The notes under the pieces: generated by a model | The model's input: only the letters and a program-made list of their open reading frames with translations | What the model was told of the DNA's origin: nothing | The model's database searches: none | Virus record (IMG/VR): IMGVR_UViG_3300045988_161152 | DNA from: a virus | Lineage: Duplodnaviria > Heunggongvirae > Uroviricota > Caudoviricetes | Reading direction: 5' to 3' (one strand) | DNA: 64,000 nucleotides | Shown here: one piece after another, positions 37,027 through 62,975 of the stretch | How the letters are laid out: each line of letters starts with the position of its first letter | How positions within the stretch are numbered: position 1 is the first letter of the stretch | Translations under genes and position numbers: made by a program

Positions 37027-37051
37027 AAAAAGGAGGTTTTCACCTCCTTTT
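37027..37051. terminator. Bidirectional terminator between mat and res
   Basis: AAAAAGGAGG-TTTTCA-CCTCCTTTT. Confidence 0.55.
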
Positions 37052-37060
37052 AAACTGGAA

Positions 37061-39973: not shown

Positions 39974-39975
39974 GA

Positions 39976-41916: not shown

Positions 41917-42067
41917 ATCCATTTTAAACCAGATCATTTAGCAACAAAGCGCCGCCTCCCCAGCCCGTTAGAGCCAGAAGTTGTGGCACTATCACTATCT
42001 ATATGTTTGAAGAATCGTGCTTCTTTGAGCGATGCTCGGTGAGCAAACAGCCATAATTTGGGGAAGT

Positions 42068-42316
42068 TTAATCCGCATTGAGAAGCAATGCATTATCTAT
42101 GATGATCTGCTCCCATTCTTCGAATGCCCGATCGCGGACGCCCTGGGGAACACTGTTAGTTTTGAAATCGACCACCGTCCGCCATTTCCCGTCCGGGCGG
42201 TACATGCGCAGAGCTTTACTTCCCCCTTCCCTGCGCACCTCAACGTTATGCTTATCAGCAAACTCTTGTAATGCTCGTAGCGTCCCATGCTTTACTGTGT
42301 AGTATCGCTTTTTCAA
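42068..42316 (-). CDS. lxc: C1 co-repressor Lxc (Bof)
   Basis: 82-aa ORF between mod and ulx, as in P1. Confidence 0.6.
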   Translation of the reverse strand: MKKRYYTVKHGTLRALQEFADKHNVEVRREGGSKALRMYRPDGKWRTVVDFKTNSVPQGVRDRAFEEWEQIIIDNALLLNAD

Positions 42317-42753
42317 GTTTTCTCTCCAGCCTGTGCCAAGGCTTCAACTTCCAAATCGTAAGACTCAAACTCATAGTCCTGGTCGTCAACTTCTTCAGGC
42401 ACTGGCAGTAAATGCCAGGCTGAGTATATCTGACCATTATCAAAACGCTCCTGGCTGTAGAGCGTCGCGGCTATGAGTGTTAGCGCCGGGCGGTCATAAC
42501 GGTAAATTTTGCGAACGTCACGGTCAACGAGACGACCGAAATTACCATAACCGCGCTCCAGTAATAATTTTTTAATTTCCGGCCAGTATGGGCCATAGCT
42601 GCGGTACAGGCGGGGATTTTTCAGTAATCGCCCGCGTAGCCCTGACAGGAAGAAATCAACGTATTCGTCTTCTGTCTTTCCTAACAATGCCGTACGCAGT
42701 ACCGCCTCAAGATATGTTTTATTCGGTTTTATTGTATCAGATAGTGTGGCCAT
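42313..42753 (-). CDS. ulx: Ulx protein, downstream of darB
   Basis: 146-aa ORF between darB and lxc. Confidence 0.6.
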   Translation of the reverse strand: MATLSDTIKPNKTYLEAVLRTALLGKTEDEYVDFFLSGLRGRLLKNPRLYRSYGPYWPEIKKLLLERGYGNFGRLVDRDVRKIYRYDRPALTLIAATLYSQERFDNGQIYSAWHLLPVPEEVDDQDYEFESYDLEVEALAQAGEKT

Positions 42754-42786
42754 ATTATGCGACGCCCGGCGAACCGGGCGCTCCTG

Positions 42787-45700
42787 TTATGCGTATTGTT
42801 GGATGACGGCCAGAACGTCCGCCACGTTGTGTTTTGTCTCGATAATCCACCAGTTACCCGGGAAATCGCTGTTCTTCGCCTTCGCTGGCAGCCAGCGAGC
42901 GCCGAATTTCGCCTTGATTGCGTCTTTCGCACGGAAAAGAACGCCTTTCATGCCTGAGGCTTCCTGAAGCCCAAATACCTCGCCAGCGGCGAATTTTGGT
43001 GCGTACATCATCTTCAGGTCGGCGGTGGATACGCGATAATTCAGACCAAGAGACTGAGCTATGCTGGTGGCATCACCCTGTATTGATGATAACTCTTCTT
43101 GTTTCTCGTTTCTGGCGGCAATTTCTTCCTCCGTGATGTTGCCAAGGGCCAGGTTTATCCGATCAGCGTCGGCCTGTTTCTCTTCATCGGTGCGTCCGGC
43201 AAGAACCGTGTTAACTCTCTGCAATATCTCCACATGATTCTTGCGCATGCTGAGCAATTCCGGCGTAACCTCGTTAAGATCCACCAGCCCAAGGATGGCA
43301 AGGTCGGAAAACATTGATACCAGGTTGTAGGTCATGCGATAGCTGAGTTGACCATAGGCTGATGGCAACTTCACCGCATCCATTTGATAGGCATCCATAA
43401 ATTTAGAGCCGTCGTTTACGACATCCGCAATTGCCGGTGTGATTTTTCCTGTGGTGGCGGCCTCCCTGATTGCTGTTACCCACGATTGAGTCAGCGCGGC
43501 GACTGCATGATTCAGATTGGCTTTCCGTTCTGCTGCAATGCGCGCACTTGCTGCGTCCATTGCCTGCTTGATCTCGTCTTTATTGCTGTAAATGCCAATG
43601 GTGCCAAACTGTGCTGTGGTGATCTCATAATCTGACGCCCGGAACTCATTGGTACCGAAAATGGCATTGGTGACTTCAAGTTCAGAATCCCCGTTACGAG
43701 TAGACCCCTGGCTTGTTTTTTCCGGCATTCTGGCGATCGCATCCGCTATTTTCTCCTGAATTGCTTCAGGGGATAGCGTATCTCCGTATGACGCGATTAC
43801 ATCGCCATAATTGGAGCCAAACAATTCAACCAGGAATGTTTCTGCCGAACGGATCTGGCGGTTATTCCCTTCCGACATCATACCAAGCACCCATTTTGCA
43901 ATTGACGACTTCAGCGCGCCGTCACGGCGATCCGGGTAAACCGCATGCTTCAGTGGGTCCGTATAGGTGCCAACAAAATCAATGCTATAGCCTGACTCTG
44001 TAGTCTGAACGCCGTATGAGTCAGTGATTTTGATCATGCCGCGCTGCTGGAAACGGTAGAAATCGTCACAGGAAATGATGTCGTTAATCCCGGCGATGGA
44101 GACGCCACCACTGATTTTCTGCATAACAGCATCTTCATCGGGAGTTACATCCACCTGTTTATCCAGCGTCTTCACATCCCAGTTACCCGATTTGGTGCCT
44201 TTGAAGGTAAAGATGATCTCCACGTCTGCGCGCTGGCTGTCGAAGTCCAGCGACTTAATGCGAACGATATCACCGGCACAATCATAGTATTGGCCTACAC
44301 GCCATGAGCGATCGCCGATAACAAGGAACTCATTCGCATGGTTAACCAGATCAGGATCAACATCCAGAATGCCTTTATTTATTGCATCCTCCACCAGCGG
44401 GCGCAGGCGTTTGATATCCGTCGCGGCCTTCTGAGTACGGTTCAATAATTTCTCATAGCGGGAGATGGCCTGAGAGATATTAGCCTTGCGCTGAATGGCG
44501 CTTTTCAACGACGCGCGATACTGTGCTAACAACATACGGTCTGTGTGATGGACGCTACCCCAGCGGGCTTTCCAGTCTGCGTTATCAGCTGCTTTGGCCA
44601 TTACCGCCTGTTTGAATTTGGCGACGTCGGCGGTGGTCTTTTCAAGTTCCGCTTTGCTTCGCTCCAATTCAGCGGTAAGTACCTCCACATCCTCACCAGC
44701 TGCGTGCTGCGCCTTGATGTAGTTCTGAAGGTCGATAGTAGCCTGTTCTTTCTGGCGAGCGCGTTTCGCAGCTTTCGCCTTATCCATTTGAACCTGCATC
44801 ATTACCAGACGTTCGCCGTCATCCTTCGCGGTATACATCTGCATTTCGATCATGTCATTGGCGTCGGCGTTCTCCATTTCTGACTTATCTGAACGGAGGA
44901 TATCGGAGATCCAGCCTGCTTTACGCTTCAGCGTCTTCAGTCGGTATTCATCGAAAGACCCCTTGCCGCAGTAGTAGTGAACGCGAACGCTTGCACGGTT
45001 GGAGCCAACTCGTGCACCGCGACCGTTACGTTGTGCGATACTGGCTGGTGTCCACGGCAACGTCAGGTGGTGGATATCCGTCGTTCCTCGATGCAGGTTG
45101 ATACCCACCTCTGCCTTTTTGTTGCAGATGATGATCGGAGTCCGGCCCTCCTGGAAGTCGGCTGCAATCTTTTCCAGACCGCCCAACGACATTTCATTTT
45201 GCTGCGCGATATAGGCGTCATACAGAGCCATTTGCTCGTTGTATTTCGCTATCTGTGCATCTGTTGGTTCATCCGGTAGCTCTTTCGGCGGTTTAACCGC
45301 TTTCAGTTTCTTACCGGTTTTACCTGCCTCGGCAACCGTCTGAGCATTCAGGATCCCCACCTTTGAAGGTTCAAGGTTTAGAGCATTGCAGATAATGCGC
45401 TTGAGCTTCTGGTGCTGCGTTTTTTCATCGGTGAAGATGATTTGCTTACCTTCCGGGAAAAACTCCTTCAGCGTGGCGATCAGCTTCGCGTATTTCGGCG
45501 TAACGGGGTGAGTTACGGTCTGTTCGTCAATGCCAAACCTGGCCAGGCGATTATTCACTTCCTGCTCAAATGCTTCCGGTACCTGCAACTGAATAAACTC
45601 GCCCTTATCTATCAGGGAGTATTGCGATTGCTGCGTGATCGAATCATCACTGTCGTCGTCTTCGCTGGTGGCTTGTTTAGGCAAACTGTCCGCCAGCTGC

Positions 45701-48700
45701 TGCACCGCATCGGCGTACTCCGGCAGGAAACGATAGGTGATCCTGCGATAGTACAGGTCCATGTCAGTACATACGCGGTCCATATCCCTGATTATTGAGA
45801 AGATCGGACGGGCTTTCTCGTGCTCAATCACGCCGTCTTCATTGACCGAGGTCGTTACGCCATTGTTGGCTTTGGCTGCCGCTTCCGCCTGCTGACGCAA
45901 TTCTTCATACGCCGCCAGTTGTTCTTCCGTAAGTGGTGCATCCTGCTGGTGTTCGTCCAGTTCCGGGATCTCCACGGTATCCTTAACGTCTTCCGCCGTT
46001 TTAAGCGTTGTCCAGCGATGGAATATGCCGCGCAGCGCATCAAGGTTTTCAAAGCCCACCAGCGCCATTTTTTCTTCAACTTCACCGCTGATTTTCTGTA
46101 CCGTTTCCAGCCTGGTCTTGCCGAAGAATTTAACGAAGTCATCAGGACCGTAGATCCCCATCTTCTGCCAGTATTCCTTCGGCAGCACATGAGAAAGCAT
46201 GTTGTATGCATCGATCGGGGTGTTAACGACTGGCGTTGCAGTCAGGAGAACCGGTCCGCGCCCACCATTCTTTTTCATCAGGTACGCGTTTTTAATTGCC
46301 ATATCCCGCGCCGATTGCGCCACCGCGCTGGTGGGCAGATAGGCCAGTTGTGACGCTTCGCGACCATTTTTATAGCTATTGCGGTAGTTGTGACCTTCGT
46401 CAGCGATCACACTATCGAAGCCCATATCCTCAAAGTACGGATACTTCTCTGCTTTTTCGGTGCCGGTATCTGAATACTCCGACAATACCCGGCGACGCGC
46501 GGCCTCTTTGCGGTGGGAGTCGGAGTCCATTGCGCTGGCTACGCGCCCGGCGGCAACGAAGTCATAAAGCATATCCTGTGCATGCTCATCTACGGTGTCA
46601 TCACGTAGCGGAATGCGGGCGTATTGTTCTTTGGTAAACACGACTGCACGGTAATTTGAGTGCGGGATCGCGTTCATCCGCGCCGTGATAGTGGCTTCAT
46701 CTGCCAGTTTTAGGGCATCGCGCATAACTGGAGTGCCATCAGTACCAAGAACAGGTTTACCGTTCTCATCGAGCACCGGCACCTGGCGAATCTGATCGCC
46801 ATCCATCAGCACATCAAGACCGACGAACAGGTAGTTACTGAATGCCTCTTCACTCAGGAATTCTTTTGCTTCGTAATACCAGTTTTCCAGCACTGATTTA
46901 GGCACTACATACGCAGTACGGGTGGAGCGACCGTTCTCATAGTTGAACGCCTCAAGCGCCAGCGCGGTCGTAGTTTTACCCAGCCCGGTGCCGAAGCCCA
47001 GGATGCCGCGCCCATCTTCGGACAGTCGGCGCACTTCGCTATTCTGGTAATCAAATGGCTGGCGCTTACCGCTTAATCCCTTCAACCCAAGCGGATCGCC
47101 AGAGTGTTCATACGGGATATTGCTATTGAACACATCGTTGTATTTGGCAACCAGTTCATCGTAGCGATCGTGCGTCTTGATCCACTTATTGAACTGGTCC
47201 TCAAGCAGTGCCATCAGCTCGCGGTAGCCGTTCGCCGTCGCGCTATCTTTGCCACCGATACGCGCACCATTGAGATACTTTTCCAGCTGTGCCGGGAACC
47301 CGGTCGCGTTTTCACCTGATTTACGGTCCCACTCGTAGCGGATCTCGCCTGTTTCTTTATCCTTGCGCTGGACGACACCGTATCGGTGCCCGACGAACAG
47401 ACCATCACCACCGTGATAGGTGTCAGAAACCATTTCGTCGCCTTCCAGCTGCACTGACTGCACATAGCGAAGATCCGGATAGCCGTTTTCCTGCAAAAAT
47501 TCCAGAATGACGGAACGGTCGAACCAACGGCTATTGAGCTTAAAGCGGATATTCTCTGCTGGCGTCTTGATGCGCTTCTCTTCGATCGCTGCCAGCTGAT
47601 TAAGGACGTTGTTCTTTACTGGACCGTCGGGGAGTGTGGCAAGGAATTCCTGTTTTGGTGCCACTATCTCGTTAATGTCTCCGCTGGTGGCGCGGGCGAA
47701 CGGAACAATCCCGCCATACGGTGAAACCGCAATGCCAGGGGTGCTGGCCAATAAATTAAGCAACTCGTCATCACTGGCTGGCAGTTCGCCGGTAAACGCA
47801 AGGCGGAAATCATCGAGCTGGATTGGATCGCGAGTGAGATCACTGTAGAGATAACGCAGGGTGTCCTGATAGCTGGTGGAGTCATAACTGGCGCTGGAAT
47901 CATGCGTAACCAGTTTTCCTGTCAGCTCGTCAGAAATAGTGCCATCCAGCTTAATTGCACCACGGAAAGCAAACCAGGCGCGCGCACCGCTCCCCGATAA
48001 TTTCGCTATCGGACCGCGACCGGGGTTACCAAAACGGTCAATCTCTGCCTGCAAACGGGATACCAGAGAAAGGCGCTGCTGTTCGATTTGTTCAGCACTA
48101 TGCCCGGCGGCCTTCATGTCCTGATATTCAATTAACATCCGGCCAATCATCGCCCCGCGATACAAGCGTTCACGGTATTTTTCAGGCTGGCTGTTAATCC
48201 AGTCCACCAGCTGCACCATATCGTCGCTGATTGATGTGGTGTACTTATCGCGGACATTTGCCATCTGGGTAAATGTCATACCGAGACGGCCTTCTGTTGT
48301 AGTCAGGTTACGCTGAAGAGCCTCCCAGCTGTCCGCGCCATAACTGGCAACATCAATCTTCAGCTCCTTCCCTGCATCAGATTCAATCCAGCGACCACCA
48401 GCATATTTTTGCCATACGCCATTAATCAGGCGCATTTCCCCTTCATCAACAACGTCTGCGGTCGGTGACGGTTCAGCCATATTGAGCAAAGACCAGTCGA
48501 TACGACTTTCGAAACGATGAATCAGCTTCGCTTTAAGAGCCTGGTTATCAATCTGCCCGTCGGCACGAACCTCAATACGCCCCTGGAATCCCTTCTCCTG
48601 GGTGCCATGAACAAACCGGCGACCGTCCTTTTCAAACCACTTGCCAGAAATAAACGTTGGCCAAAGCACATTTGCCGATTCAAGAGTGCTTTCATCCACC

Positions 48701-49554
48701 AGGGGGATTTTCTCAGCCATCTCTGCCGGATGTTTGCGCATCAGCACCACATCAACGACTGTACTGGTCCCGTTTGCGTCAAAAGTACCGGTAGGCAAGC
48801 GGTGAGCACCAAGAAATTCAGCTTTCCGTGATAGGCGCAGGCGTAACCGCTTCATGTTTGAACCTGAAACAATGGACGGCGGCACAATCACGCACATGAA
48901 TCCGCCTGGCTTTATCTTGTCCAGCATGCGGAGCATGAAGTAAGAACCCATGTCCGTTTCTTCTGCGTAAGGCTTATCGATGTTGCGTGTGTTATCACGA
49001 CCACCGAACGGAACGTTACCCACAACATGGTCGAATGAATCGTTAGGCGTGCTTACAGCCAGTTGTTCGAACGGAGAAATCTGTACGCTGTCTTCCGGGT
49101 GCAACAGCTGGTTTATACGACCGGAAACACTGCTGATCTCAGTCGCGGTCATCACCGTACCAACCGGTTTTGTCTCATTAAAAACGCCGGTTCCCGCCGA
49201 TGGTTCCAGAGTGTTACCTACGTCCGCGCCGTAGAGCTTCATGATCTCCCAGACACCTTCAGCGATCGGCTTTGGTGTGTAATATTCGGAGACGGACCCG
49301 CCAATGCCGCCTTCGCCGGTGTACCCAGCCAGGATCTGGCGCTGTTCATCTGTCAGTGTCGCGCCGTCCACCAGCGAATTAAGCAAATCTATCGCCTTCT
49401 GATTCGCCTCCCGGCGTAGTCGGTCATAGCTTTTGCCTTCCACCTTTTCCACGCCGTATCTAATCGGCGCTCGGTGAGATGTTATTGCCCTAATGTATTT
49501 CAATATTTCGCTGACACTTGAACAGCGAAACACCCCTATAGATAGCTTGTTCAT
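42787..49554 (-). CDS. darB: Antirestriction protein DarB (MTase plus DExH helicase fusion)
   Basis: 2255 aa; N6-MTase-like VGNVPFG and helicase ADEGHNYRNS motifs. Confidence 0.9.
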   Translation of the reverse strand: MNKLSIGVFRCSSVSEILKYIRAITSHRAPIRYGVEKVEGKSYDRLRREANQKAIDLLNSLVDGATLTDEQRQILAGYTGEGGIGGSVSEYYTPKPIAEGVWEIMKLYGADVGNTLEPSAGTGVFNETKPVGTVMTATEISSVSGRINQLLHPEDSVQISPFEQLAVSTPNDSFDHVVGNVPFGGRDNTRNIDKPYAEETDMGSYFMLRMLDKIKPGGFMCVIVPPSIVSGSNMKRLRLRLSRKAEFLGAHRLPTGTFDANGTSTVVDVVLMRKHPAEMAEKIPLVDESTLESANVLWPTFISGKWFEKDGRRFVHGTQEKGFQGRIEVRADGQIDNQALKAKLIHRFESRIDWSLLNMAEPSPTADVVDEGEMRLINGVWQKYAGGRWIESDAGKELKIDVASYGADSWEALQRNLTTTEGRLGMTFTQMANVRDKYTTSISDDMVQLVDWINSQPEKYRERLYRGAMIGRMLIEYQDMKAAGHSAEQIEQQRLSLVSRLQAEIDRFGNPGRGPIAKLSGSGARAWFAFRGAIKLDGTISDELTGKLVTHDSSASYDSTSYQDTLRYLYSDLTRDPIQLDDFRLAFTGELPASDDELLNLLASTPGIAVSPYGGIVPFARATSGDINEIVAPKQEFLATLPDGPVKNNVLNQLAAIEEKRIKTPAENIRFKLNSRWFDRSVILEFLQENGYPDLRYVQSVQLEGDEMVSDTYHGGDGLFVGHRYGVVQRKDKETGEIRYEWDRKSGENATGFPAQLEKYLNGARIGGKDSATANGYRELMALLEDQFNKWIKTHDRYDELVAKYNDVFNSNIPYEHSGDPLGLKGLSGKRQPFDYQNSEVRRLSEDGRGILGFGTGLGKTTTALALEAFNYENGRSTRTAYVVPKSVLENWYYEAKEFLSEEAFSNYLFVGLDVLMDGDQIRQVPVLDENGKPVLGTDGTPVMRDALKLADEATITARMNAIPHSNYRAVVFTKEQYARIPLRDDTVDEHAQDMLYDFVAAGRVASAMDSDSHRKEAARRRVLSEYSDTGTEKAEKYPYFEDMGFDSVIADEGHNYRNSYKNGREASQLAYLPTSAVAQSARDMAIKNAYLMKKNGGRGPVLLTATPVVNTPIDAYNMLSHVLPKEYWQKMGIYGPDDFVKFFGKTRLETVQKISGEVEEKMALVGFENLDALRGIFHRWTTLKTAEDVKDTVEIPELDEHQQDAPLTEEQLAAYEELRQQAEAAAKANNGVTTSVNEDGVIEHEKARPIFSIIRDMDRVCTDMDLYYRRITYRFLPEYADAVQQLADSLPKQATSEDDDSDDSITQQSQYSLIDKGEFIQLQVPEAFEQEVNNRLARFGIDEQTVTHPVTPKYAKLIATLKEFFPEGKQIIFTDEKTQHQKLKRIICNALNLEPSKVGILNAQTVAEAGKTGKKLKAVKPPKELPDEPTDAQIAKYNEQMALYDAYIAQQNEMSLGGLEKIAADFQEGRTPIIICNKKAEVGINLHRGTTDIHHLTLPWTPASIAQRNGRGARVGSNRASVRVHYYCGKGSFDEYRLKTLKRKAGWISDILRSDKSEMENADANDMIEMQMYTAKDDGERLVMMQVQMDKAKAAKRARQKEQATIDLQNYIKAQHAAGEDVEVLTAELERSKAELEKTTADVAKFKQAVMAKAADNADWKARWGSVHHTDRMLLAQYRASLKSAIQRKANISQAISRYEKLLNRTQKAATDIKRLRPLVEDAINKGILDVDPDLVNHANEFLVIGDRSWRVGQYYDCAGDIVRIKSLDFDSQRADVEIIFTFKGTKSGNWDVKTLDKQVDVTPDEDAVMQKISGGVSIAGINDIISCDDFYRFQQRGMIKITDSYGVQTTESGYSIDFVGTYTDPLKHAVYPDRRDGALKSSIAKWVLGMMSEGNNRQIRSAETFLVELFGSNYGDVIASYGDTLSPEAIQEKIADAIARMPEKTSQGSTRNGDSELEVTNAIFGTNEFRASDYEITTAQFGTIGIYSNKDEIKQAMDAASARIAAERKANLNHAVAALTQSWVTAIREAATTGKITPAIADVVNDGSKFMDAYQMDAVKLPSAYGQLSYRMTYNLVSMFSDLAILGLVDLNEVTPELLSMRKNHVEILQRVNTVLAGRTDEEKQADADRINLALGNITEEEIAARNEKQEELSSIQGDATSIAQSLGLNYRVSTADLKMMYAPKFAAGEVFGLQEASGMKGVLFRAKDAIKAKFGARWLPAKAKNSDFPGNWWIIETKHNVADVLAVIQQYA

Positions 49555-49566
49555 TGGTAATCCTTA

Positions 49567-49586
49567 ACAAGTGACTAGTGTTAAAT
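49567..49586. promoter_or_regulatory. Late promoter candidate (AACAAGTGACTAGTG plus TTAAAT) in the divergent darB/prt region
   Basis: Near-palindromic ACTAGT-centred element followed by a -10-like hexamer. Confidence 0.4.
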
Positions 49587-49620
49587 TCCGTTCAAACACG
49601 ATGCGAATTATTCTAATTAA

Positions 49621-52351
<2,731 letters not shown>

Positions 52352-52364
52352 CCACCAAAAATAA

Positions 52365-52390
52365 CCCCGGCAGCTGCCGGGGTTCTCGTT
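52365..52390. terminator. Bidirectional terminator between pro and lyz operons
   Basis: Perfect 18-bp palindrome CCCCGGCAGCTGCCGGGG flanked by A- and T-rich runs. Confidence 0.55.
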
Positions 52391-52398
52391 AACTATTA

Positions 52399-52656
52399 TC
52401 ACCTTCGCCTGCGTGCCATATATTTGCGCACCGCGCGGCCTGGACAATCTGAAGCTGTTTCTTTCTGCTGCATCAATCTCGCAGCCATGCTCAAAAATGT
52501 CAGGCACAGCCGAAGCCCGGCATACAATAGCGGTTCCAGTGGCCACGTCTCATTGAGCACATATACCGCCATGAAAATCGAGTCAAAAACTATCGCCGCC
52601 AGCGATAACTTCATTGTCGAAAGTCGGCGGAGCTGCCGGAGTTTATTCATTGACAA
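52399..52656 (-). CDS. Small membrane protein downstream of lyz (possible lysis accessory)
   Basis: 85 aa with one hydrophobic helix; overlaps lyz stop by 14 nt. Confidence 0.4.
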   Translation of the reverse strand: MSMNKLRQLRRLSTMKLSLAAIVFDSIFMAVYVLNETWPLEPLLYAGLRLCLTFLSMAARLMQQKETASDCPGRAVRKYMARRRR

Positions 52657-53200
52657 GCCCCGTCAGGCAAAGCTGGCGTTCTTTTTCACGGCGAATCTTT
52701 AAACCTCGCAGGGGCACGCCGTTACTGTTCACGAAATCAGGGAGATGGTTACACATATTCACCCATTCCCCTTTCTGCGCCCACTTGTGGATGGACGTTT
52801 CTACTCGCATGCCTCGCGCTTTGCTGTAGTAGGTCCGTAAGCTATTGCATCCCATATTGAATGCCGCGCTTGTCATTGCACTGAAGGCATTATCGGGCAT
52901 GTCTTTGCCCCGGAAGTGCTGATTAATACAGCGTTCAGCGATCAGGATATTCTTTTCCCAATCAGCGGCGATTTGCTGGTCGGTTTTTCGCACACCCGGC
53001 GTTACCCCGTGTGTATTACCGATCCCGTCAGTCCATACCCCCGCCGGGCACATGTATGGATCACGTCGGCAACCTTCAGCGTTACCAATCAGCTCAAGCC
53101 CCGCCTGGTTGGTTCGCACATTGCCATTACCCATCACGATGGTAATCATCACCGCGATAGCGCAAATTGCACCGCCTCCTGCGGCTGTTTTTCCCTTCAT
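52643..53200 (-). CDS. lyz: SAR endolysin (T4-lysozyme family)
   Basis: 185 aa from MKGKTAAGGGAICAIAVMITIV (signal-arrest-release segment) then catalytic E...D...T region. Confidence 0.85.
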   Translation of the reverse strand: MKGKTAAGGGAICAIAVMITIVMGNGNVRTNQAGLELIGNAEGCRRDPYMCPAGVWTDGIGNTHGVTPGVRKTDQQIAADWEKNILIAERCINQHFRGKDMPDNAFSAMTSAAFNMGCNSLRTYYSKARGMRVETSIHKWAQKGEWVNMCNHLPDFVNSNGVPLRGLKIRREKERQLCLTGLVNE

Positions 53201-53333
53201 AAAGACCTCATAAGCGAATTTTTTACGCTCCAGGACAAACACTCATTCACAGCCAATACCGACTGACTCGATCCCTTTAGAAGGCACAGGATAATGCAAA
53301 TCACTTGTTAGCCACGTTTCAAAGATATACATT

Positions 53334-53350
53334 ATTGCTCTAATTAATTT
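53334..53350. promoter_or_regulatory. C1 operator upstream of ssb
   Basis: ATTGCTCTAATTAATTT (1 mismatch). Confidence 0.55.
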
Positions 53351-53369
53351 ATTTTATTAGGTAAGAAAA

Positions 53370-53858
53370 GTGGCACAACGCGGTGTAAACAAAGTCATCC
53401 TGATTGGTACCCTGGGGCAAGACCCGGAGATCAGGTATATACCAAATGGCGGAGCGGTCGGAAGACTCAGCATCGCAACGAATGAATCATGGCGCGACAA
53501 GCAAACGGGCCAACAGAAAGAGCAAACAGAATGGCATAAAGTAGTTTTGTTCGGAAAACTTGCTGAAATTGCGAGTGAATATTTACGAAAAGGTTCTCAG
53601 GTCTACATCGAAGGGAAACTGAAAACCCGTAAGTGGACAGATGACGCCGGTGTAGAACGTTACACGACGGAAATTATCGTCAGCCAGGGCGGCACCATGC
53701 AAATGATCGGCGCTCGCCGTGACGATTCACAGTCCTCAAATGGCTGGGGGCAATCAAACCAACCTCAAAACCACCAGCAATACAGTGGTGGCGGTAAACC
53801 TCAGAGCAACGCCAATAACGAACCTCCAATGGACTTTGACGACGATATTCCGTTTTGA
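53370..53858 (+). CDS. ssb: Single-stranded DNA-binding protein
   Basis: 162 aa; OB-fold N-terminus, G/Q-rich linker and acidic DFDDDIPF tail. Confidence 0.9.
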
Positions 53859-54055
53859 ATGTGTAAAAAACGACTGAAAGAAAAGCGGTGGTCCAGACGC
53901 CGACAAAAGCACGAACTCGCTCAAAAACGCCAAAGTTGGCAATGGCACGCGCTTTTAACGAATAGAACACCCCGAGATATTGCTTTCGCTGGTGGGAAAA
54001 CATTCCTAACCAACCTGAAGGCGCAATACATCAGTTTTTAAGCAGAGAAAAGACT

Positions 54056-54850
54056 ATGACAGCACAAAATACTAAAACCATTCAATACCGCCTACGTAAT
54101 GGCCAGAGTGTCGAAGTGACCATCAATAACGATGGAGTGCCAGGCGAAAAGGTTTCTATCTCTGATCTGGCTATCGAAAAAACCATCATGTGCCACCTTG
54201 GCTTTACTGAAGAAGTGAGCAAAAAGCATGGTGTAGCTATCTGGCGCACAATGGATACTGGAATGCGCAGATTCATTACTGCTCGTACCCCTGGTATGAC
54301 CATGATGGACCTCATGCAGATTGCGCCGCTGTTTGAGTGTGAACCTCTGGATGTATTCAGTAATCCAGTTATCTGCCAGCAGTTATATGGTGAGATGAAA
54401 CTCGCGGTTACCCCCATCGTGCTGCATGAAGGATCGCTTGCTGGCGTATGGAAAGTAGAGCGAATTTCAAGCTACATGCCCTTCCACGTCCATGTCAACG
54501 GCGTAATCACAGGTGAAAATCAACCTGTTTCAGTTACAAAGTCAGACCTCAAGCGTGCAATTCTTGAAGCAAGTTGTCGAGTTATCGGCCTGGGCAAACA
54601 GTCTTATGTTTGCTTCCCCGCAGGCCCAGAAGGCCAGGCTGAAATACTGGCGATGGATGCCGATCTGCTCTGGCAAATAGAGTTTATGATAGGGAAAAGC
54701 ATCATCCGAGCTGAAGAACTCGATCAGTACATTACCTGCACAATGACGGATGAGGTAAAAAGTGTGGCTATAGCCAAAGCCCGGAACCTGTGTCGTGCTG
54801 CATTAACAGAACTGCGAGAAAACACCACGGAAGAGGTGGAAAGTGATTAA
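54056..54850 (+). CDS. Hypothetical protein, upstream partner of the PacB paralogue
   Basis: 264-aa ORF whose stop overlaps the next start by 8 nt. Confidence 0.55.
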   Translation: MTAQNTKTIQYRLRNGQSVEVTINNDGVPGEKVSISDLAIEKTIMCHLGFTEEVSKKHGVAIWRTMDTGMRRFITARTPGMTMMDLMQIAPLFECEPLDVFSNPVICQQLYGEMKLAVTPIVLHEGSLAGVWKVERISSYMPFHVHVNGVITGENQPVSVTKSDLKRAILEASCRVIGLGKQSYVCFPAGPEGQAEILAMDADLLWQIEFMIGKSIIRAEELDQYITCTMTDEVKSVAIAKARNLCRAALTELRENTTEEVESD

Positions 54851-55937
54851 TCGTATACAGAATGAATCTGCCTGGTTAGCACTGATAGAACAGTATAAAG
54901 ACAATTGGGAACTGGCAGCGAAAGAGTTGCTTGATATTGAGTTAACACCTCATCAAGCAAAAATTATTAACGCGATAAAGAACACCGGAGCCAAAGTCAC
55001 TGCCACCACACCACATGGTATTGGGGAAACCTCTATTGTGGCAGTGATTAGCATCCTGCAAACAATACTGTATTCGTGTTCCCGTACAGTGGTTGTTTCT
55101 CCTGCTATTAACGATAGTCGAAAAACAATAATTGACTATATGTTCCGTTATTGGGAGCGAGTTACCCAAAAACACCCTTTTCTTGGCAATCATTTCAGAA
55201 TGCACCCTGACAAAGGGTTGGTGCATATCAGTGAAACATGGGGATGCGTCTATATAACCTATTGTCTGAATAACGAAGTGTCTCTGGCTGGTTTTACTGG
55301 ACCGCACGATCTTTTCATCGTTATTAACTCGGCGGAAATCAGCGATCGCGCTCATGCAGTGATAACTGGCAATTTAACCAATTATGACTCGCGCCTGCTG
55401 TTGCTGTCGAAACCATCGGAACGCGAGAAAGGGTACTTTTATGATTCGCATCACCGGTTGGCCCATAGTAAAAACAATCCTGCTGGTTTTTTCACGGCGA
55501 TAACTCTAAACACAGAGGATTCGCCTCTCGTTTCTGAAGCATATCTTGAATTCAAAGCCAAAGAGTTTGGTGGGCGCAATAGCGATGAATATCGCCGATT
55601 GATCTTGGGGAAATTTCCCGGGATTCGGGAGTTGATGGAAAAGTCATCTGTTCCCCGTAATATGCACTTCACAATGACTGACGGTAGTAAATGGGTAGTG
55701 CCTACGATCGTGATCGCCAAACACCATGCGAAACATCACGCTCAAAAACACAACTCCAGCACATTAGACTGGCTGAAGGCCTATACAATACCGTTATTCT
55801 CGGCAAACCATAACGCTATAGCTGAATGGGCTAAACAAATCCCCTGGCAGGATGTGGCTGAAGAGGCATTTGTCGAAAAACCTCCGAGAGATTTGCACGA
55901 GCACTGTTGGCTGACATCAGAAAAGAGCTTCTCGTGA
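54843..55937 (+). CDS. Terminase large-subunit (PacB) paralogue with degenerate Walker A/B motifs
   Basis: 364 aa; aligns to PacB N-terminal ATPase half ([21 protein letters not shown]) but has PHGIGETS for GHGTGKS and VINSAE for IIDEAS. Confidence 0.6.
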   Translation: MINRIQNESAWLALIEQYKDNWELAAKELLDIELTPHQAKIINAIKNTGAKVTATTPHGIGETSIVAVISILQTILYSCSRTVVVSPAINDSRKTIIDYMFRYWERVTQKHPFLGNHFRMHPDKGLVHISETWGCVYITYCLNNEVSLAGFTGPHDLFIVINSAEISDRAHAVITGNLTNYDSRLLLLSKPSEREKGYFYDSHHRLAHSKNNPAGFFTAITLNTEDSPLVSEAYLEFKAKEFGGRNSDEYRRLILGKFPGIRELMEKSSVPRNMHFTMTDGSKWVVPTIVIAKHHAKHHAQKHNSSTLDWLKAYTIPLFSANHNAIAEWAKQIPWQDVAEEAFVEKPPRDLHEHCWLTSEKSFS

Positions 55938-55968
55938 GGTAAAAATCCCGCCGATTGGCGGGATTTCT

Positions 55969-56277
55969 TTAATATATGATCTGGTCTATATGATCACCAA
56001 AATCATCGTCGTCGTCCTCATCGCCACCATCTACTGCTGGCCAATCAACAAACCAGCCAGCGTAAAGATACAGCGTTCGGAGAACATCACTTGCGGGAGC
56101 ATCAAGGGTGTTAACGAATCCCATATAGCTATTGGGATTTGCTCCAGCTATGGCTTCAGCGATCATGTCCTCGGTAATGTCACCGGAGATAATGCTTAAA
56201 CGCCCGGAAACTTCTTCATTATCATCAAATTCGATAATGGCATCTCCGCCTAATGGCGCTGCGATTTTAATCTGCAT
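55969..56277 (-). CDS. Small acidic protein downstream of ddrB
   Basis: 102 aa; GGDEDDDDDFGD tract; start overlaps ddrB stop. Confidence 0.45.
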   Translation of the reverse strand: MQIKIAAPLGGDAIIEFDDNEEVSGRLSIISGDITEDMIAEAIAGANPNSYMGFVNTLDAPASDVLRTLYLYAGWFVDWPAVDGGDEDDDDDFGDHIDQIIY

Positions 56278-59254
56278 TATTTAGCTCCTTTGCCACACCT
56301 AATAACAGTTCCAGCAATCCGTCACCATTCATCAGTGATGCGGCAGCGGCCTCTTTGTCATGATACAACTGAAGAGCCATAGAGAATACTTCCGTTGCTG
56401 ACGTTTTGGAAATGGTCGGTGATTTCTGCCGAATTTTCCCGGAGTTACTCACTGAGACTGGCGGGTATACCTTCGCCATATAAATATTACTCAATCGAGA
56501 TCTGAAGCACCATTCAGGCTTGCCACGCCCACCGATATTAACGAAAGATGGCTTATCCCCTTCAACATTGGCCTTCAGGAATGACCGGGCTTTCTCTAAC
56601 AAACCAGGGTTACTGTACTCAAGATGATGACCCAGCTCGTGCCACAGTGCACTTGCATTTTCATCGTTCAAATTGACAGCAACAACACCATTAAGATTTG
56701 CATATGCCCTTCCCTTGTGGTGAACCACCTTTGATAAGGTCGAAATTTTACCGCCGGTCAGGCGATAAATATCAGCAAGTTCCTTGCGCAGGTCTATCCC
56801 ACCATTCTGTCCAGCGCGGGCTTCTTCCACTTCTTCCGTGATAAAAGAGTCGGCCCACTCAAGAGCTTTTTCTTCAGATACGGATGAGTTTGCGATCGCA
56901 CTGTTCATGGCAGATAACACTTTCTCGTGGACCGAACCCATACTTCGCTGATTCATTTGCCAGCGTGTCTGCGGGTTGTATGAGAATCGCTTAAGTAGTT
57001 GGTCAAGCTGCTCAAGTTCTTCTTCACTGACATACTTTTTAGCCTCACCAATAATGCCAGGGAGAATATTGCCGTTAGGATTAAACGCTCGCGAAAGGAA
57101 GAGTTTCAGCGCCCCCATGCCCTCCGATGCTTCAATATCACCAATAACCCGGTTAACAATGGCCGCACTCTTCGGATTAGCATCCGCCAACGCCCTGGCT
57201 ACAATTTGCAGGGACGATACGACCTCACGCTGCATATCAGTCCTGATCTCATCAATAAACTCTGGCGTTATGCCGTGCTCTTTAAGGATATCCCTGCCTT
57301 CCGCCGTTACCCCATCGATATCACCGACATGTTTATTAACCTGACTTTGCAATGCCTTAAATGCCTTCAGAATTCCACGGGCATCATCAGCTTTACTAAC
57401 GGCCTTCCTGAATGCTGGCAAGAAGTCTGAGTTAACCTCATTTTGTTGATCGGCCCACTGAATGGAGGCTTCTTTCATCTCGTCCAGAGTCAGATCACCC
57501 AACGCGGTATGGTCTGTGAATATGAGCGACAACCTCTGAACCATTTCTGCCAATGGTGATGCCGAATGCGCCGCGCTAAGGAATGCTTTCACCCTGGTTG
57601 GGCGAATGGAAAACCAGTCAATAGCTGGTGGCATATCTCCGTTTTTTATCGCCTGCGCTATCTCGTCAAAGCCATCGCGCCCAAGGGAGGATGCGTGATT
57701 TAACAATCCGCGAAGTAACGAATTGCTGATACCGAATAATCGGCACCATTTTTTCACGTCGGCAACAGGCATTCGAACAAAATGCGCAAGCACTTGTACA
57801 AGCTGTTCATCCTGGGGATCTGTGCGGGAAAGCAGCCTGATCAGATGAATAATGTCTTTGATGCCGGATGCCCGATGTAATAGCAAACTGGTATACGGAG
57901 CAACACCGTTGTAACTACCGCCGGAAACGGACTCGAAAAGACCGCCGGATATCCCTTGCATGCCTTCGTATTCCAGTTCCTGAGACACCTGGCGAAGGAT
58001 ATCCTGTAACGACACATCGCCGCCGCCAAACATATCCCCGAGCGCCTGGCCCTGGTGCTGTAACTCATCATTGATACGTTGCGCCATCAACTTAAAGGCG
58101 GTGGCCATACGCTTCGCGCTACGGTTATTCGCGACGATGAACAACGCGAGTGCTTTCACTTCCGGGGCCGTTTCGCTGAACATATCCCCCTGAGCAATAA
58201 CATCGGTAATATGCTGGCCTGACTCCTTCGATTGCCTTACCAGGTCTACCGCATCTTTCAATGCCGCCAGCGCCTTTTTATCGAGGCTATCCGCTGTCTC
58301 AATGCCATCAACAATAGTTGTCACAGCCTGCTTGTGCGCTTCTCCTGATAAAGCCTGCATCTGGACAAAATCATTGGCTGCCGCATTAAGCGCCGTCAGA
58401 ACATTACGCATATCCGGATCAGGTTCTTCTGCAACCATCCTTACCAGGCGCGCATCCTTATATGCCTTGGCAAAGATCGCGTTTTGTATACGGTCAACAA
58501 GTTGCCGTGTTGGTCGCCCATCTTCAGTTACAAGGCCAGCCGCCTGTGTGGCACCAACTTGCGTCATGAATCCGCGAATAAACGCGTCATTACTGCGGCT
58601 AAGCAGATCTCCGCTTTCTGACGGGTTAAACAACGCCATCATCGCCGGTGTTATGCTGTCGGCATCAACAAAAGCCTTTTCACTGGCTGCCATTTCCTGG
58701 AGATCAGAAATATTTGAGTCCTTGGCAAACTGAACACGGTCAACCTTCGTTAACCGGCGGCGCACCAGTACCGGAGCCGTCATTGATTCAACCTTTTCAG
58801 GCCGTATGCCGAATTCGGTCGCATGTTCAATCAGGTACTCCCGATACCGATCCGCATTACCGTCCTGATAGGCTTTGATGATCCCCATGGTCCGTCCATT
58901 ACCTGACTCAACGGCATTGTCCTCACCAATTATCGGCGCGCCATGGCTGGATAAACCGGAATCAGTAAGCTGAGCAGGCCGCAAATCTTTGGATATCTGG
59001 TTAACCTGAAGAAGGCTGGATGCGCGGGTCCGGTCGCGCGGCTGAAGTTCCTGGGGATAGTCAGGATTAATTTTCCCATCCAGAGTATTGGATACCAAAA
59101 GAGCTGAGGCATCGACGATATCAAACGCTGTTTTTACCTCGTCTCCCTTCGCTGTCACCACATACGAAACCCGCCCATAATCGGGCAGGTTCTTTAGCAG
59201 CTCGATCAGCGTTTCTATGCTGGTGGCCATTACCACCTGATCGCTTAAGCTCAT
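56267..59254 (-). CDS. ddrB: Dar-operon protein DdrB
   Basis: 995-aa ORF downstream of ddrA/darA. Confidence 0.75.
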   Translation of the reverse strand: MSLSDQVVMATSIETLIELLKNLPDYGRVSYVVTAKGDEVKTAFDIVDASALLVSNTLDGKINPDYPQELQPRDRTRASSLLQVNQISKDLRPAQLTDSGLSSHGAPIIGEDNAVESGNGRTMGIIKAYQDGNADRYREYLIEHATEFGIRPEKVESMTAPVLVRRRLTKVDRVQFAKDSNISDLQEMAASEKAFVDADSITPAMMALFNPSESGDLLSRSNDAFIRGFMTQVGATQAAGLVTEDGRPTRQLVDRIQNAIFAKAYKDARLVRMVAEEPDPDMRNVLTALNAAANDFVQMQALSGEAHKQAVTTIVDGIETADSLDKKALAALKDAVDLVRQSKESGQHITDVIAQGDMFSETAPEVKALALFIVANNRSAKRMATAFKLMAQRINDELQHQGQALGDMFGGGDVSLQDILRQVSQELEYEGMQGISGGLFESVSGGSYNGVAPYTSLLLHRASGIKDIIHLIRLLSRTDPQDEQLVQVLAHFVRMPVADVKKWCRLFGISNSLLRGLLNHASSLGRDGFDEIAQAIKNGDMPPAIDWFSIRPTRVKAFLSAAHSASPLAEMVQRLSLIFTDHTALGDLTLDEMKEASIQWADQQNEVNSDFLPAFRKAVSKADDARGILKAFKALQSQVNKHVGDIDGVTAEGRDILKEHGITPEFIDEIRTDMQREVVSSLQIVARALADANPKSAAIVNRVIGDIEASEGMGALKLFLSRAFNPNGNILPGIIGEAKKYVSEEELEQLDQLLKRFSYNPQTRWQMNQRSMGSVHEKVLSAMNSAIANSSVSEEKALEWADSFITEEVEEARAGQNGGIDLRKELADIYRLTGGKISTLSKVVHHKGRAYANLNGVVAVNLNDENASALWHELGHHLEYSNPGLLEKARSFLKANVEGDKPSFVNIGGRGKPEWCFRSRLSNIYMAKVYPPVSVSNSGKIRQKSPTISKTSATEVFSMALQLYHDKEAAAASLMNGDGLLELLLGVAKELNNAD

Positions 59255-59266
59255 CCCTGTTACGCC

Positions 59267-59632
59267 TTATGCTGCCTCTTTAATGTTGGCGGCTATCCAT
59301 GCCGCCGTGTGCTGTTTAACCTGGTCCAGGTCGATGTATGTGCCAACATATTGACTCAAGTCCTGCAAGGTACCGATAAATGCATCTGTGCTCTGATCGA
59401 CGAATTTATCAGCCAGGAAATCAGCAACCAGTTTTGGCACACCATCATGTTCCGAAGGTTGTTTTTCATCGCCACTACCACCGCCGGACGCGCCGTACCC
59501 CATCTGTTGCATGATCTGGTCAATTTCATCGCTGATATCCAGCAACTCCATGCCACTCGCGGTGGCCGCTTTGGACATCAGAGCATCCAACTTATCGCTG
59601 AGATCCATTAACTCAATAGCTGATAGTGTCAT
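59267..59632 (-). CDS. ddrA: Dar-operon protein DdrA
   Basis: 121 aa; overlaps darA stop (ATGA). Confidence 0.7.
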   Translation of the reverse strand: MTLSAIELMDLSDKLDALMSKAATASGMELLDISDEIDQIMQQMGYGASGGGSGDEKQPSEHDGVPKLVADFLADKFVDQSTDAFIGTLQDLSQYVGTYIDLDQVKQHTAAWIAANIKEAA

Positions 59633-61548
59633 GCCGCTACCCCCGCTTTCTGGATTGCTACCAACAGATCAGCCAGGTGGCGAGCTGCGCCGTTAACCAG
59701 CTCTTCGTTTTCCTCAAAACGTCCGGCAGCCTGAAGGGCTGCAATCGCTTCCCGGATATTGCCCCGGGCGTTACGGATCTCCGCCATGTCAGTGCTTTGC
59801 ATATCCATTACGTTATTGAGATATTCAATGGCTTTATTAGCCTCTGCATCTGCTTCGCTAACCGTTTCATCAGGCTGTGCCGGGGCCGGTTCTGGCTGAG
59901 TAATCTCACCGACTTCGGCCTGCAATGCATTGATCATGCTCTGCACCATTTTCTCGGTGCCAGCGCCCCCAGGAAACGCAATATTGGGGAAAGTTTTTTG
60001 AAACTGAGTTTTCAGCATTACGCGGAACTCGTCTGGTGAGCTGGTGGCCAGCTCCAGAGCTTTTTGTGCATATTTGCCAAACGGACCATTAGTAAGTGTC
60101 TTCGCCAGGAAGTCGAAAGAATCCTCGCGAGGCAATAACTTCAGGTCGTACTCACTCATTTGCTGATCAGAAAGCGGGGTATCGTAAGTAGCAATGCCGT
60201 AGCGTGCATATTCATAATACGGGTCACCTTCATCAGGGCGCGGCAGAATCGCTTTGTTACCTTCAGGTATTGCGCCAGGGGCCGCCGGACGCATTTGCAG
60301 GGCATATCGATATGCACCTACAGAGACTTCTGGTTCAGGCGAAGAGCTACCGGTATCCTCCGCTGGTTCAGGTTCGACGTTTTCCGGTTTATGTTCTTCT
60401 GGTTGGACCAGATATTCCGATACATTACCCGCTTTATAGGCTTTAAACAGCTTGCCGATCGCATCTGCCATGTCCACACCCTGTATGGATTTAGCCTTGA
60501 TCATGTATACGCTGCCATCCGGATCGGTTAACTGGATATACCCTTCACCATCCCCAATGAATTGCTTCATTGATGCACCATTACTGAGCGTCGCTTCCCC
60601 GTCCATATGCATACGATTTTTGATACTGGCAAGGCGATCCGTCAGCGCGCGAGAGTGCCCACCAGTCATCCCCGCTGGAGCAATGGTATCGCGCCCACCA
60701 GTGCGATTGAGCTGATCAATCTCCGTCTGCAAACGCTCATTCTCTTCATAAAGAGAATCCGCTTCCGATGCAACAGCGTTAATTTTCTGCTCCAGATCTG
60801 CCTTCTGCCCTTCTACCGCTGCCACCTGATCCGCGAGGTCGCTCATGGCATCCTCTTTCTGGTCACTGTCAGCCTGTAGTTGGGTTATTTCATCAACAAG
60901 GGCTTTTTTCTTCTTCTGCGCACGCTGGAATTTTGCCGAGTTTTTCTCTGCAAGGTTGGCAAGTTTCATGGTGACCTGCGCCAGCGTCATATCACGTCCA
61001 CTCATCGGAGCAACGGTGTGAGTAACGTCTTTTTTATTCAGTAAGAACTGGAAAGCAACCAGCGTATCGCTATTGGTGATCCGGTTTTCCGCTGTCGGGC
61101 TATGAAACAGAATGCTGATAGTCTGACCATCACTGAGCGGAATAATGGCTGGCAAGACCGGCAGCCCGTTAACGTTACGTGCCCGGCCAATTTCAGCGCC
61201 GCCGATCGCGCGCGCGCCGCTCTGGGCCACATCCCCCGTTTTATCACTCCCCGCAGAGATTCCGGTACCATTCAGCTTCTGGTTCAATGCCCGGACAAAT
61301 GCCTGCATGGTCCGGTGTAACTGCAAACGAGTAGAACTAATCGCCTCCAGTAAATCCGTAGCACACCAGTGGATCGGCGTGTCATAGAAGAACGTAGCCT
61401 CGATTTCCTCCAGGGTGTTGGATTCCGTCATCAGATAGCGGTCCTCACCGGCCATTAATGCGCGATATTCATCATCAGTCACTGGCGGGGGAAGCACGTC
61501 AAGCCCAGGCTTGAGCGTCACCCCTTTATTGATATTGAACTGTTCCAT
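59629..61548 (-). CDS. darA: Antirestriction protein DarA
   Basis: 639 aa; shares a KNSAKFQ block with the upstream hdf product. Confidence 0.85.
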   Translation of the reverse strand: MEQFNINKGVTLKPGLDVLPPPVTDDEYRALMAGEDRYLMTESNTLEEIEATFFYDTPIHWCATDLLEAISSTRLQLHRTMQAFVRALNQKLNGTGISAGSDKTGDVAQSGARAIGGAEIGRARNVNGLPVLPAIIPLSDGQTISILFHSPTAENRITNSDTLVAFQFLLNKKDVTHTVAPMSGRDMTLAQVTMKLANLAEKNSAKFQRAQKKKKALVDEITQLQADSDQKEDAMSDLADQVAAVEGQKADLEQKINAVASEADSLYEENERLQTEIDQLNRTGGRDTIAPAGMTGGHSRALTDRLASIKNRMHMDGEATLSNGASMKQFIGDGEGYIQLTDPDGSVYMIKAKSIQGVDMADAIGKLFKAYKAGNVSEYLVQPEEHKPENVEPEPAEDTGSSSPEPEVSVGAYRYALQMRPAAPGAIPEGNKAILPRPDEGDPYYEYARYGIATYDTPLSDQQMSEYDLKLLPREDSFDFLAKTLTNGPFGKYAQKALELATSSPDEFRVMLKTQFQKTFPNIAFPGGAGTEKMVQSMINALQAEVGEITQPEPAPAQPDETVSEADAEANKAIEYLNNVMDMQSTDMAEIRNARGNIREAIAALQAAGRFEENEELVNGAARHLADLLVAIQKAGVAA

Positions 61549-61549
61549 G

Positions 61550-62161
61550 TTAATTTCCTGCTTTCAGTTGCTTAAGACGGCGTTTGAGTTCGCCATTTCG
61601 GGCCTTTTCGTTATTGAGTCGGCCTGTCTCCTTATCCAGCTTCGCCCGCAAATCAGTGATCTGCTGTTGATTGAAAGACACCGAGTTCTGAGCTGATTTA
61701 TAAGCGGCAACCACCTGAGCATTCCGCTGTTTTGCTTCTTGCAGGCGCTGAAAGTTGGATTTAACTGCCGGTTTCTTGTCTACCGGATTGGCAACACGCT
61801 TCGCTTTGGCGATCAGTGATTTCTGGAATTTTGCGGAGTTTTTGCGAGCCGCCTGTCCCATGACGGTACCAAGCGTCTTGATATCCGGCGACTGAGCGTT
61901 AGGAATAGCTTTTCCATTCAGTTTCACAGACGATATATCGCCAGTATCGTTTACCTGTATGGCAAGAATTTGTCCGTCGTTAAGAACCAGCTTTGCGGTT
62001 TTAACTTTAACGCCATCTTTCGTTGTTGCGCGGTTGCTGGAGTCAACCTCAATTACCGTAACCCCGGTTTTATTGATCGCCGCGATAAGGGATTTCAGCC
62101 CCTTTTCATTAACCTGGTCAAAATCGACCGTTGCATACTTATTTTTCGTCATCTGACACAT
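61550..62161 (-). CDS. hdf: Hdf (homologue of a DarA fragment)
   Basis: 203 aa with internal similarity to DarA residues around KNSAKFQ. Confidence 0.7.
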   Translation of the reverse strand: MCQMTKNKYATVDFDQVNEKGLKSLIAAINKTGVTVIEVDSSNRATTKDGVKVKTAKLVLNDGQILAIQVNDTGDISSVKLNGKAIPNAQSPDIKTLGTVMGQAARKNSAKFQKSLIAKAKRVANPVDKKPAVKSNFQRLQEAKQRNAQVVAAYKSAQNSVSFNQQQITDLRAKLDKETGRLNNEKARNGELKRRLKQLKAGN

Positions 62162-62582
62162 CCTGTGCGAGATTTATTACGTAACTTCTGCGGATTTGCT
62201 GAGTAACAGGGAAAATCCGATACAACGGGTTAATGAACGAGTCGCCATGCGTAACCATGACGTTGAAATGCCACAGTCGCTCTCCTTTACCCATATATTC
62301 AGTGGGTATGTACAACCATTCACTGTTTTCGCCCTGTTCAGCCGACGTCAGACAACGTTGTTCGCCTTCAATCACTGTCGTCGGCTTCTGAACATCGCGG
62401 ATCCAATATCTGACCGTTGCGCCGCGCAAAAACGGGAATTTAGACCGGTATTTGAACGGCACCCGGATGAAACCCGGTTTAATTTCCACATCACCAAGTT
62501 CTAAATGCGTGATGTCCTTGCGTTTTAGCAAATAGCGATCGGCTAAGGCTAACGCAAGAACGCATACACCCCAGCCAATCAT
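62139..62582 (-). CDS. lydB: Antiholin LydB
   Basis: 147-aa ORF overlapping lydA stop; position as in P1. Confidence 0.65.
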   Translation of the reverse strand: MIGWGVCVLALALADRYLLKRKDITHLELGDVEIKPGFIRVPFKYRSKFPFLRGATVRYWIRDVQKPTTVIEGEQRCLTSAEQGENSEWLYIPTEYMGKGERLWHFNVMVTHGDSFINPLYRIFPVTQQIRRSYVINLAQDVSDDEK

Positions 62583-62908: not shown

Positions 62909-62975
62909 AAGTTCCCTCCTACGTTGTCAGGAGGTAATGGTATGCAAAGTAACTTCTCAACCGGTCATTTGTTGC

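Follow-up and report, generated by a model that had tools for sequence, protein, structure and literature searches.

Does the 64,000-nucleotide stretch of viral DNA held as IMG/VR record IMGVR_UViG_3300045988_161152 (Caudoviricetes; hereafter the window) carry a whole and working Dar (defense against restriction) system, and how might the proteins of such a system act? A preliminary description, made from the letters alone, had proposed a complete six-gene set between positions 42313 and 62161, and all six open reading frames (ORFs) were found there on the minus strand: ulx (42313–42753; 146 amino acids), darB (42787–49554; 2255 amino acids, the largest Dar protein), ddrB (56267–59254; 995 amino acids), ddrA (59267–59632; 121 amino acids), darA (59629–61548; 639 amino acids, encoding the internal head protein DarA), and hdf (61550–62161; 203 amino acids, encoding a DarA homolog). 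The 19,849 bases so delimited start at the ulx stop codon and end at the hdf start codon. In global alignments with the proteins of reference P1 (NC_005856), all six aligned end to end, with equal lengths, zero gaps, and zero internal stops, and identities of 98.6% for Ulx, 98.8% for DarB, 98.5% for DdrB, 97.5% for DdrA, 98.7% for DarA, and 99.0% for Hdf. Nucleotide divergence from P1 amounts to 0.7–3.0% per dar gene and is mainly synonymous: synonymous codon changes outnumber replacements by 106 to 26 in darB, 37 to 15 in ddrB, 18 to 8 in darA, and 14 to 2 in hdf. This synonymous excess indicates that the dar genes are under purifying selection.

Family models support the same assignment. DarA scores 1094 bits against the NCBIfam equivalog anti_RE_DarA (cutoff 350), while Ulx matches phrog_1629 (“Ulx-like anti-restriction”, E = 4.5e-66) and DdrA matches phrog_1855 (“DdrA-like anti-restriction”, E = 2e-57). 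DdrB carries an N-terminal Pfam ddrB-ParB domain (residues 36–167, E = 1.8e-39) and a C-terminal zincin metallopeptidase-like region with an HELGH (HExxH) motif at residue 872; the reading of this protein as a ParB/Srx domain joined to a zincin follows Iyer et al. (PMC5512222). Searches of Pfam, NCBIfam, and PADLOC gave no match for Ulx, DdrA, Hxr, IsaA, or a 364-residue ORF that lies between the dar genes. Judged by sequence features, namely the six-gene completeness, the P1 gene organization, the DarA_N domain and DarA model, the architecture of DarB, and the domains of DdrB, the locus belongs to the Dar systems, and no evidence in the sequence runs contrary to that identification. We are highly confident that the stretch carries the Dar system of a P1-type phage-plasmid, and this system is complete and very probably functional. 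The finding is right, but what it describes was already known.

Nucleotide matches place the window in a P1-like phage-plasmid (Punavirus). The 19,849 bases match the Punavirus records MH422554 and MH445380 at 99.3% identity over their full length, and reference P1 NC_005856 at 98.2% identity with 94% coverage, the uncovered 6% corresponding to the IS1-isaB segment of the reference. The best plasmid match, E. coli NZ_CP117715, is 99.8% identical and collinear across the whole 19.8 kb. Altogether, 718 plasmid records match the Dar region, 380 of which cover at least 80% of it, and 23 phage records match it as well.

DarA and Hdf had been noted to share a KNSAKFQ block, which we located at residues 202–208 of DarA and 107–113 of Hdf. 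Both proteins contain the Pfam domain DarA_N (DarA residues 66–204, E = 1.4e-42; Hdf residues 13–109, E = 1.1e-21), and in each the block sits at the C-terminal edge of that domain. Because KNSAKFQ closes a common domain, it reflects homology and not a chance match of seven residues. A direct BLASTP comparison aligns ~100 residues of Hdf and DarA at 29% identity (E = 0.001). DarA is laid out as DarA_N and DarA_C (Pfam) linked through a coiled-coil segment, while Hdf consists of the DarA_N domain and, at its C-terminus, a helix for pairing with DarA. Each protein matches a chain of the P1 virion structure determined by cryo-electron microscopy (cryo-EM), PDB 9ukm, over its full length: DarA matches chain I (residues 1–639) and Hdf matches chain H (residues 1–203).

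How these proteins work is known in outline from P1. According to the literature on P1 (PMC9024508, PMC12810830, PMC12707154, PMC5512222), the dar genes are expressed late. Six Dar proteins are built into the P1 head (PMC9024508, PMC12707154), with virion proteomics given in PMC9024508. Loading of the procapsid starts with Hdf and DarA, continues with DdrA, DdrB, and Ulx, and ends with DarB (PMC9024508, PMC12810830). The DarA N-terminus is reportedly trimmed by the Pro protease during head maturation (PMC12810830, citing Streiff 1987). Ulx has been detected in P1 virions and is said to help localize DarB (PMC9024508). The Dar proteins exit the head with the DNA, and protection is strictly in cis, limited to co-packaged DNA (PMC12707154). 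DarA and DdrA are required against EcoA and StySA, DdrA being listed as an EcoA antagonist in PMC9024508, while DarB, Ulx, and DdrB are required against EcoK and EcoB (PMC12810830). The preliminary description had the Dar proteins packaged in the capsid and guarding the DNA against type I restriction. Both parts are established in the literature for P1 (Iida 1987 and Piya 2017, cited through PMC9024508, PMC12810830, and PMC12707154); the proteins encoded here differ from those of P1 by 1–2.5%, and packaging and protection are predicted for them. Reported protection is not confined to type I systems, as it extends to StySA, which has been reclassified as BREX (PMC9009780, PMC12707154).

Hdf and DarA may be mainly structural, acting on head size, capsid stability, or DNA organization and contributing to antirestriction indirectly by loading DdrA and DarB. 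Deletion of hdf or darA, according to Piya 2017 as cited in PMC12810830, yields particles that lack every other Dar protein and affects head morphogenesis, and PMC12707154 states that such a morphogenetic role complicates the interpretation of dar phenotypes. By cryo-EM, 55 DarA-Hdf pairs brace the penton-hexon junctions and touch the DNA with a face that carries positive charge; the pairs are absent from emptied heads, and capsids rupture once they are gone (PMC12810830). We regard a mainly structural role as possible, though on balance we would not expect it, and it is compatible with the antirestriction explanation without replacing it. The same positive face lies on DNA that DarA and Hdf then accompany out of the head (PMC12810830), leaving room for direct shielding, and polyvalent proteins injected by unrelated phages also contain DarA_N domains (PMC5512222).

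DarB poses the more difficult mechanistic problem. The proposal of a 2255-residue protein with N6-methyltransferase-like and DExH helicase motifs is borne out by the Pfam domains N6_Mtase (residues 145–291), SNF2-rel/ResIII (833–911), and Helicase_C (1455–1517), all above cutoff, and by the motifs themselves, the DExH box reading DEGH. The N-terminal domain resembles gamma-class N6-adenine methyltransferases, and behind it comes a DExH helicase core of SF2/SNF2-like type. In the former we identified LEPSAGTGVF, corresponding to the S-adenosylmethionine (SAM)-binding motif I, and GNVPFG, corresponding to motif IV; in the latter, GTGLGKT at residue 855, DEGH at 1052, and QRNGRGAR at 1508 show that helicase motifs I, II, and VI (Walker A, DEGH, and the arginine finger) are intact. 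Strict patterns for a motif IV of NPPY type and for DE[AVCSH]H had no match in DarB, and GNVPFG and DEGH were found with looser patterns. Among proteins of solved structure, those closest to the methylase domain in sequence are HsdM subunits of type I systems, M.EcoKI among them, at weak E values of about 1e-4 to 6e-4, and PADLOC assigns the domain to MTase_I.

Motif IV of DarB reads NVPF rather than NPPY, so that a degenerate methylase was considered. We compared the domain with nine homologs retrieved by tblastn from phages of Escherichia (D6), Xanthomonas, Thermus, Leptospira, Burkholderia, Streptococcus, Bacteroides, and Bacillus. The G-x-G of motif I and the N-x-P of motif IV are invariant across all nine, down to 28–34% identity, and NVPF and NPP[YF] interchange among them with N and P fixed. 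Hence NVPF is an accepted variant, and the degenerate methylase was rejected.

Because the SAM-binding, catalytic methylase, and helicase motifs are intact and are conserved in distant homologs, DarB is most likely an enzyme that acts on entering DNA rather than a passive coat. It could be an SNF2-like translocase, powered by ATP, that travels on the incoming DNA and either blocks type I enzymes as they translocate or displaces them, with the HsdM-like methylase domain either modifying the DNA or engaging the restriction complex. We tentatively prefer a model in which an SNF2-like translocase with an HsdM-like methylase would block or displace type I enzymes on incoming DNA, and hold it with somewhat less than even confidence. 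Conservation of the catalytic motifs across phyla also allows a broader proposal, which we consider rather unlikely as worded: that DarB, here and in P1, is an active cis-acting enzyme, a fusion of an SNF2 translocase and an HsdM-like methylase, which neutralizes both type I and BREX systems by displacement and/or by methylation of relaxed specificity.

DarB could instead be passive, a bulky DNA-bound coat or decoy whose methylase and helicase folds merely bind DNA or the restriction enzyme and catalyze nothing. Protection confined to cis prompted a physical-occlusion hypothesis in the literature (PMC12707154), and the noncanonical NVPF and the packaging of ~40 DarB copies per virion (PMC9024508) can be read in the same direction. 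Forty copies are, however, too few to coat 94 kb of DNA; the NVPF/NPP[YF] swap leaves N and P invariant; and intact Walker A, DEGH, and arginine finger motifs, together with an invariant G-x-G at such low identity, are what selection on catalysis would be expected to preserve. A passive DarB thus appears doubtful to us.

Several points nevertheless weigh against a functional system or an enzymatic DarB. The cited literature reports no enzymatic activity, neither methyltransferase nor ATPase, for DarB, and the biochemical mechanism of Dar “has not been defined” (PMC11109961). EcoK and EcoB recognize different sequences, which makes sequence-specific protective methylation unlikely. The anti-restriction effect of plasmid-expressed DarB proved to be a DNA artefact (Chi plus an EcoKI site) independent of the protein, and mutants in catalytic residues behaved alike in that assay (PMC11109961). 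Finally, the first 30 residues of DarB suffice to bring a reporter into the capsid, with truncations implicating residues 6–10 (PMC9024508), and although 29 of these 30 residues are identical to P1, the sole change, M6I, falls inside the implicated stretch. The substitution is conservative and probably tolerated, though it may bear on packaging. If true, the active-enzyme reading of DarB concerns P1 biology generally and is nothing particular to this window; the conservation of the DarB motifs argues that catalytic mutants in the phage context would be informative.

Chi sites were also counted. The window contains 48 copies of GCTGGTGG (31 on the plus and 17 on the minus strand) compared with the ~1.8 that base composition would predict. 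The darB gene accounts for 11, the same number as published for P1 darB (PMC11109961), while just three occur in the dar operon, each on the plus strand. The overall count and the 11 sites in darB indicate that the known Chi enrichment of P1 is retained here.

We then considered whether the six genes form two operons, one consisting of darB and ulx and the other of hdf, darA, ddrA, and ddrB, as had been suggested. In outline this is correct: ulx does lie downstream of darB, across a 33-bp gap, and its end overlaps the start of lxc by 4 bp. The second unit is larger than described. A sequence equivalent to the late promoter LPdar lies at 62937–62955 (minus strand), upstream of the holin gene lydA (62579–62908, minus strand; product 100% identical to P1 LydA) and the antiholin gene lydB (62139–62582, minus strand; 98.6% identical to P1 LydB). 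All 19 annotated bp agree with P1, and a 121-bp alignment around them has 1 mismatch. From there the genes are tightly packed: lydA and lydB overlap by 4 bp, lydB and hdf by 23 bp, darA and ddrA by 4 bp, and ddrB and hxr by 11 bp, while hdf and darA are 1 bp apart and ddrA and ddrB 12 bp. NC_005856 has the genes in this order and with these overlaps. Given a predicted promoter in front of lydA and tight packing through hxr, the unit comprises lydA-lydB-hdf-darA-ddrA-ddrB-hxr. By P1 annotation and the conserved LPdar, lydA to hxr forms one predicted late unit, and it corresponds to the “darA operon” that PMC9009780 cites from Iida et al. 1998.

Between the divergent genes darB and prt lie positions equivalent to LPpro, annotated as a late promoter in P1 (49569–49587, plus strand), and to PdarB, a predicted sigma-70 promoter (49610–49640, minus strand); this control region (49569–49640) shows 1 mismatch in 111 bp relative to P1. 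At the end of the lydA-to-hxr unit, a perfect 10-pair palindrome, AAATCCCGCCGATTGGCGGGATTT, occupies 55943–55966 between the convergent hxr and 364-residue ORF, starting 3 nucleotides past the hxr stop, with T-runs on both strands. This hairpin is likely a bidirectional terminator. A scan for terminators and promoters around ulx and lxc gave no excess over shuffled controls.

About 6.7 kb of the 19.8 kb (49555–56266) is not Dar at all. This interval carries, on the plus strand, prt for the portal (49630–51339), pro for the prohead protease (51332–52351; 339 amino acids, 99.4% identical to P1 Pro), ssb (53370–53858), an isaA-like ORF (54056–54850), and the 364-residue ORF (54843–55937); on the minus strand are the lysis genes lydE, lydD, and lyz (about 52331–53242) and hxr (55969–56277; 102 amino acids, Xre-like, 95.1% identical to P1 Hxr). 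Past the Dar span we also located lydC and cin, in addition to lydA and lydB. These neighbors bear on whether the Dar genes might be relics, idle in a defective plasmid-prophage that no longer makes virions. Some P1-like plasmids do lack lytic functions, such as pJIE250-3 (PMC6906374), and the window spans just 64 kb of a genome of ~90–100 kb. Against this, all Dar ORFs are intact with a strong synonymous excess, prt, pro, lyz, lydA–E, ssb, and cin are intact and 93–100% identical to P1, and the promoter sequences are conserved. We consider such decay highly improbable.

The preliminary description further held that Dar coexists with the phage's own type III restriction-modification system in a layered arrangement of offense and defense. 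That system is present and intact on the minus strand, before the Dar span: res (37061–39973; 970 amino acids; Pfam ResIII and RE_endonuc) and mod (39976–41937; a 653-residue ORF; Pfam N6_N4_Mtase and T3RM_EcoP15I_C) are 100% identical in DNA to EcoP1I, both as found in P1 and in X06287; the IS5 insertion that interrupts mod in the laboratory P1 strain used for sequencing is absent. The two systems do stand intact side by side in this element, but their pairing does not extend to a general feature. EcoP1I res-mod at ≥99% identity occurs in ~50 plasmid and 8 phage records, compared with 718 and 23 for the Dar region, and in MH422554, the closest phage, neither res nor mod is annotated and mat and lxc lie just ~1.2 kb apart. 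Furthermore, res-mod is one of eight hypervariable regions in P1-like phage-plasmids, and the dar genes are not among them (PMC9603915). Because res-mod is hypervariable, rare among Dar carriers, and unannotated in MH422554, the pairing is not a designed feature; “layered” is a gloss rather than a finding, Dar being conserved backbone and EcoP1I res-mod variable cargo. Divergence along the window is consistent with this: 36900–42130 (res-mod-lxc) has zero differences from reference P1 apart from the absence of IS5, while from 42131 onward (to 64000) divergence is 1.5–2.5%. A mosaic junction near 42131 fits res-mod being a swappable region (PMC9603915).

Another candidate anti-restriction gene lies near the start of the window, where a 754-residue ORF (159–2423, plus strand) falls in a stretch annotated as the DNA methyltransferase gene dmt in the closest phage records; if this ORF is dmt, it would constitute a further anti-restriction layer beyond Dar, one absent from the preliminary description. 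Three tRNA genes follow at 3097–3250 and 4878–4953 (plus strand): Asn-GTT, Thr-TGT, and a tRNA with a CAT anticodon, called Met by ARAGORN. In P1 the last is annotated as an Ile tRNA. An Rfam search of the window at the gathering threshold found only the three tRNAs.

The 364-residue ORF between the two groups of dar genes fills the slot of IS1 and isaB in reference P1, homology to which resumes just past the palindrome at the hxr stop codon (55969). As a diverged IsaB it was rejected (E = 0.084). It is instead paralogous to the ATPase half that makes up the N-terminus of PacB, the terminase large subunit encoded at 30439–31923, with 34% identity over residues 11–285 (E = 2e-50). The Walker A lysine has been lost (GHGTGKS to PHGIGET), as has the acidic pair of Walker B (IIDEA to VINSA), and in place of the C-terminal nuclease half of PacB stands an unrelated tail of ~80 residues. 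From these changes, the product is probably an ATPase-dead terminase-like protein. The PacB-like cassette was found in 120 plasmid and three phage records.

The first description of Dar dates from 1987, its genetic dissection from 2017, and a partial cryo-EM structure from 2026, and the element studied here is one among hundreds of near-identical P1-like phage-plasmids. The analysis confirms that the element is of P1 type, with its anti-restriction backbone intact and its type III system as swappable cargo.

Compared with the Dar system of P1 (NC_005856), the locus has the same six genes with the same order, orientation, and lengths, and the same domains and motifs. It differs by ~2% in nucleotides, mostly at synonymous positions, and by the replacement of IS1 and isaB with the PacB-like ORF; its mod gene is uninterrupted, whereas that of NC_005856 is interrupted by IS5. 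Other P1-like phage-plasmids (MH422554, MH445380, P7, SJ46, RCS47, JL22, and plasmid NZ_CP117715) have similar Dar regions, but most lack EcoP1I res-mod. Further afield, the DarB-like polyvalent virion proteins, including D6 orf15, Bcep22 gp75, Thermus phage Lalka8 gp2, and others, share the DarB-type N6-methylase with motifs I and IV conserved, and in annotated examples this methylase lies within very large proteins that also bear SNF2-type helicase regions. They differ from DarB in methylase-domain identity (28–60%), in size, and in extra domains, Bcep22 gp75 reaching ~4600 residues. The T4 internal protein IPI* and T7 Ocr, by comparison, have no sequence relationship to Dar, which works only in cis and requires six proteins. 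IPI* and Ocr are small and target the restriction enzyme by direct binding, in trans in the case of Ocr (PMC5512222). The resemblance is one of route in the first case and of target in the second: IPI*, like Dar, is packaged in the head via a capsid-targeting sequence and injected with the DNA (PMC9024508), and Ocr, like Dar, counters both type I and BREX systems (PMC9009780).

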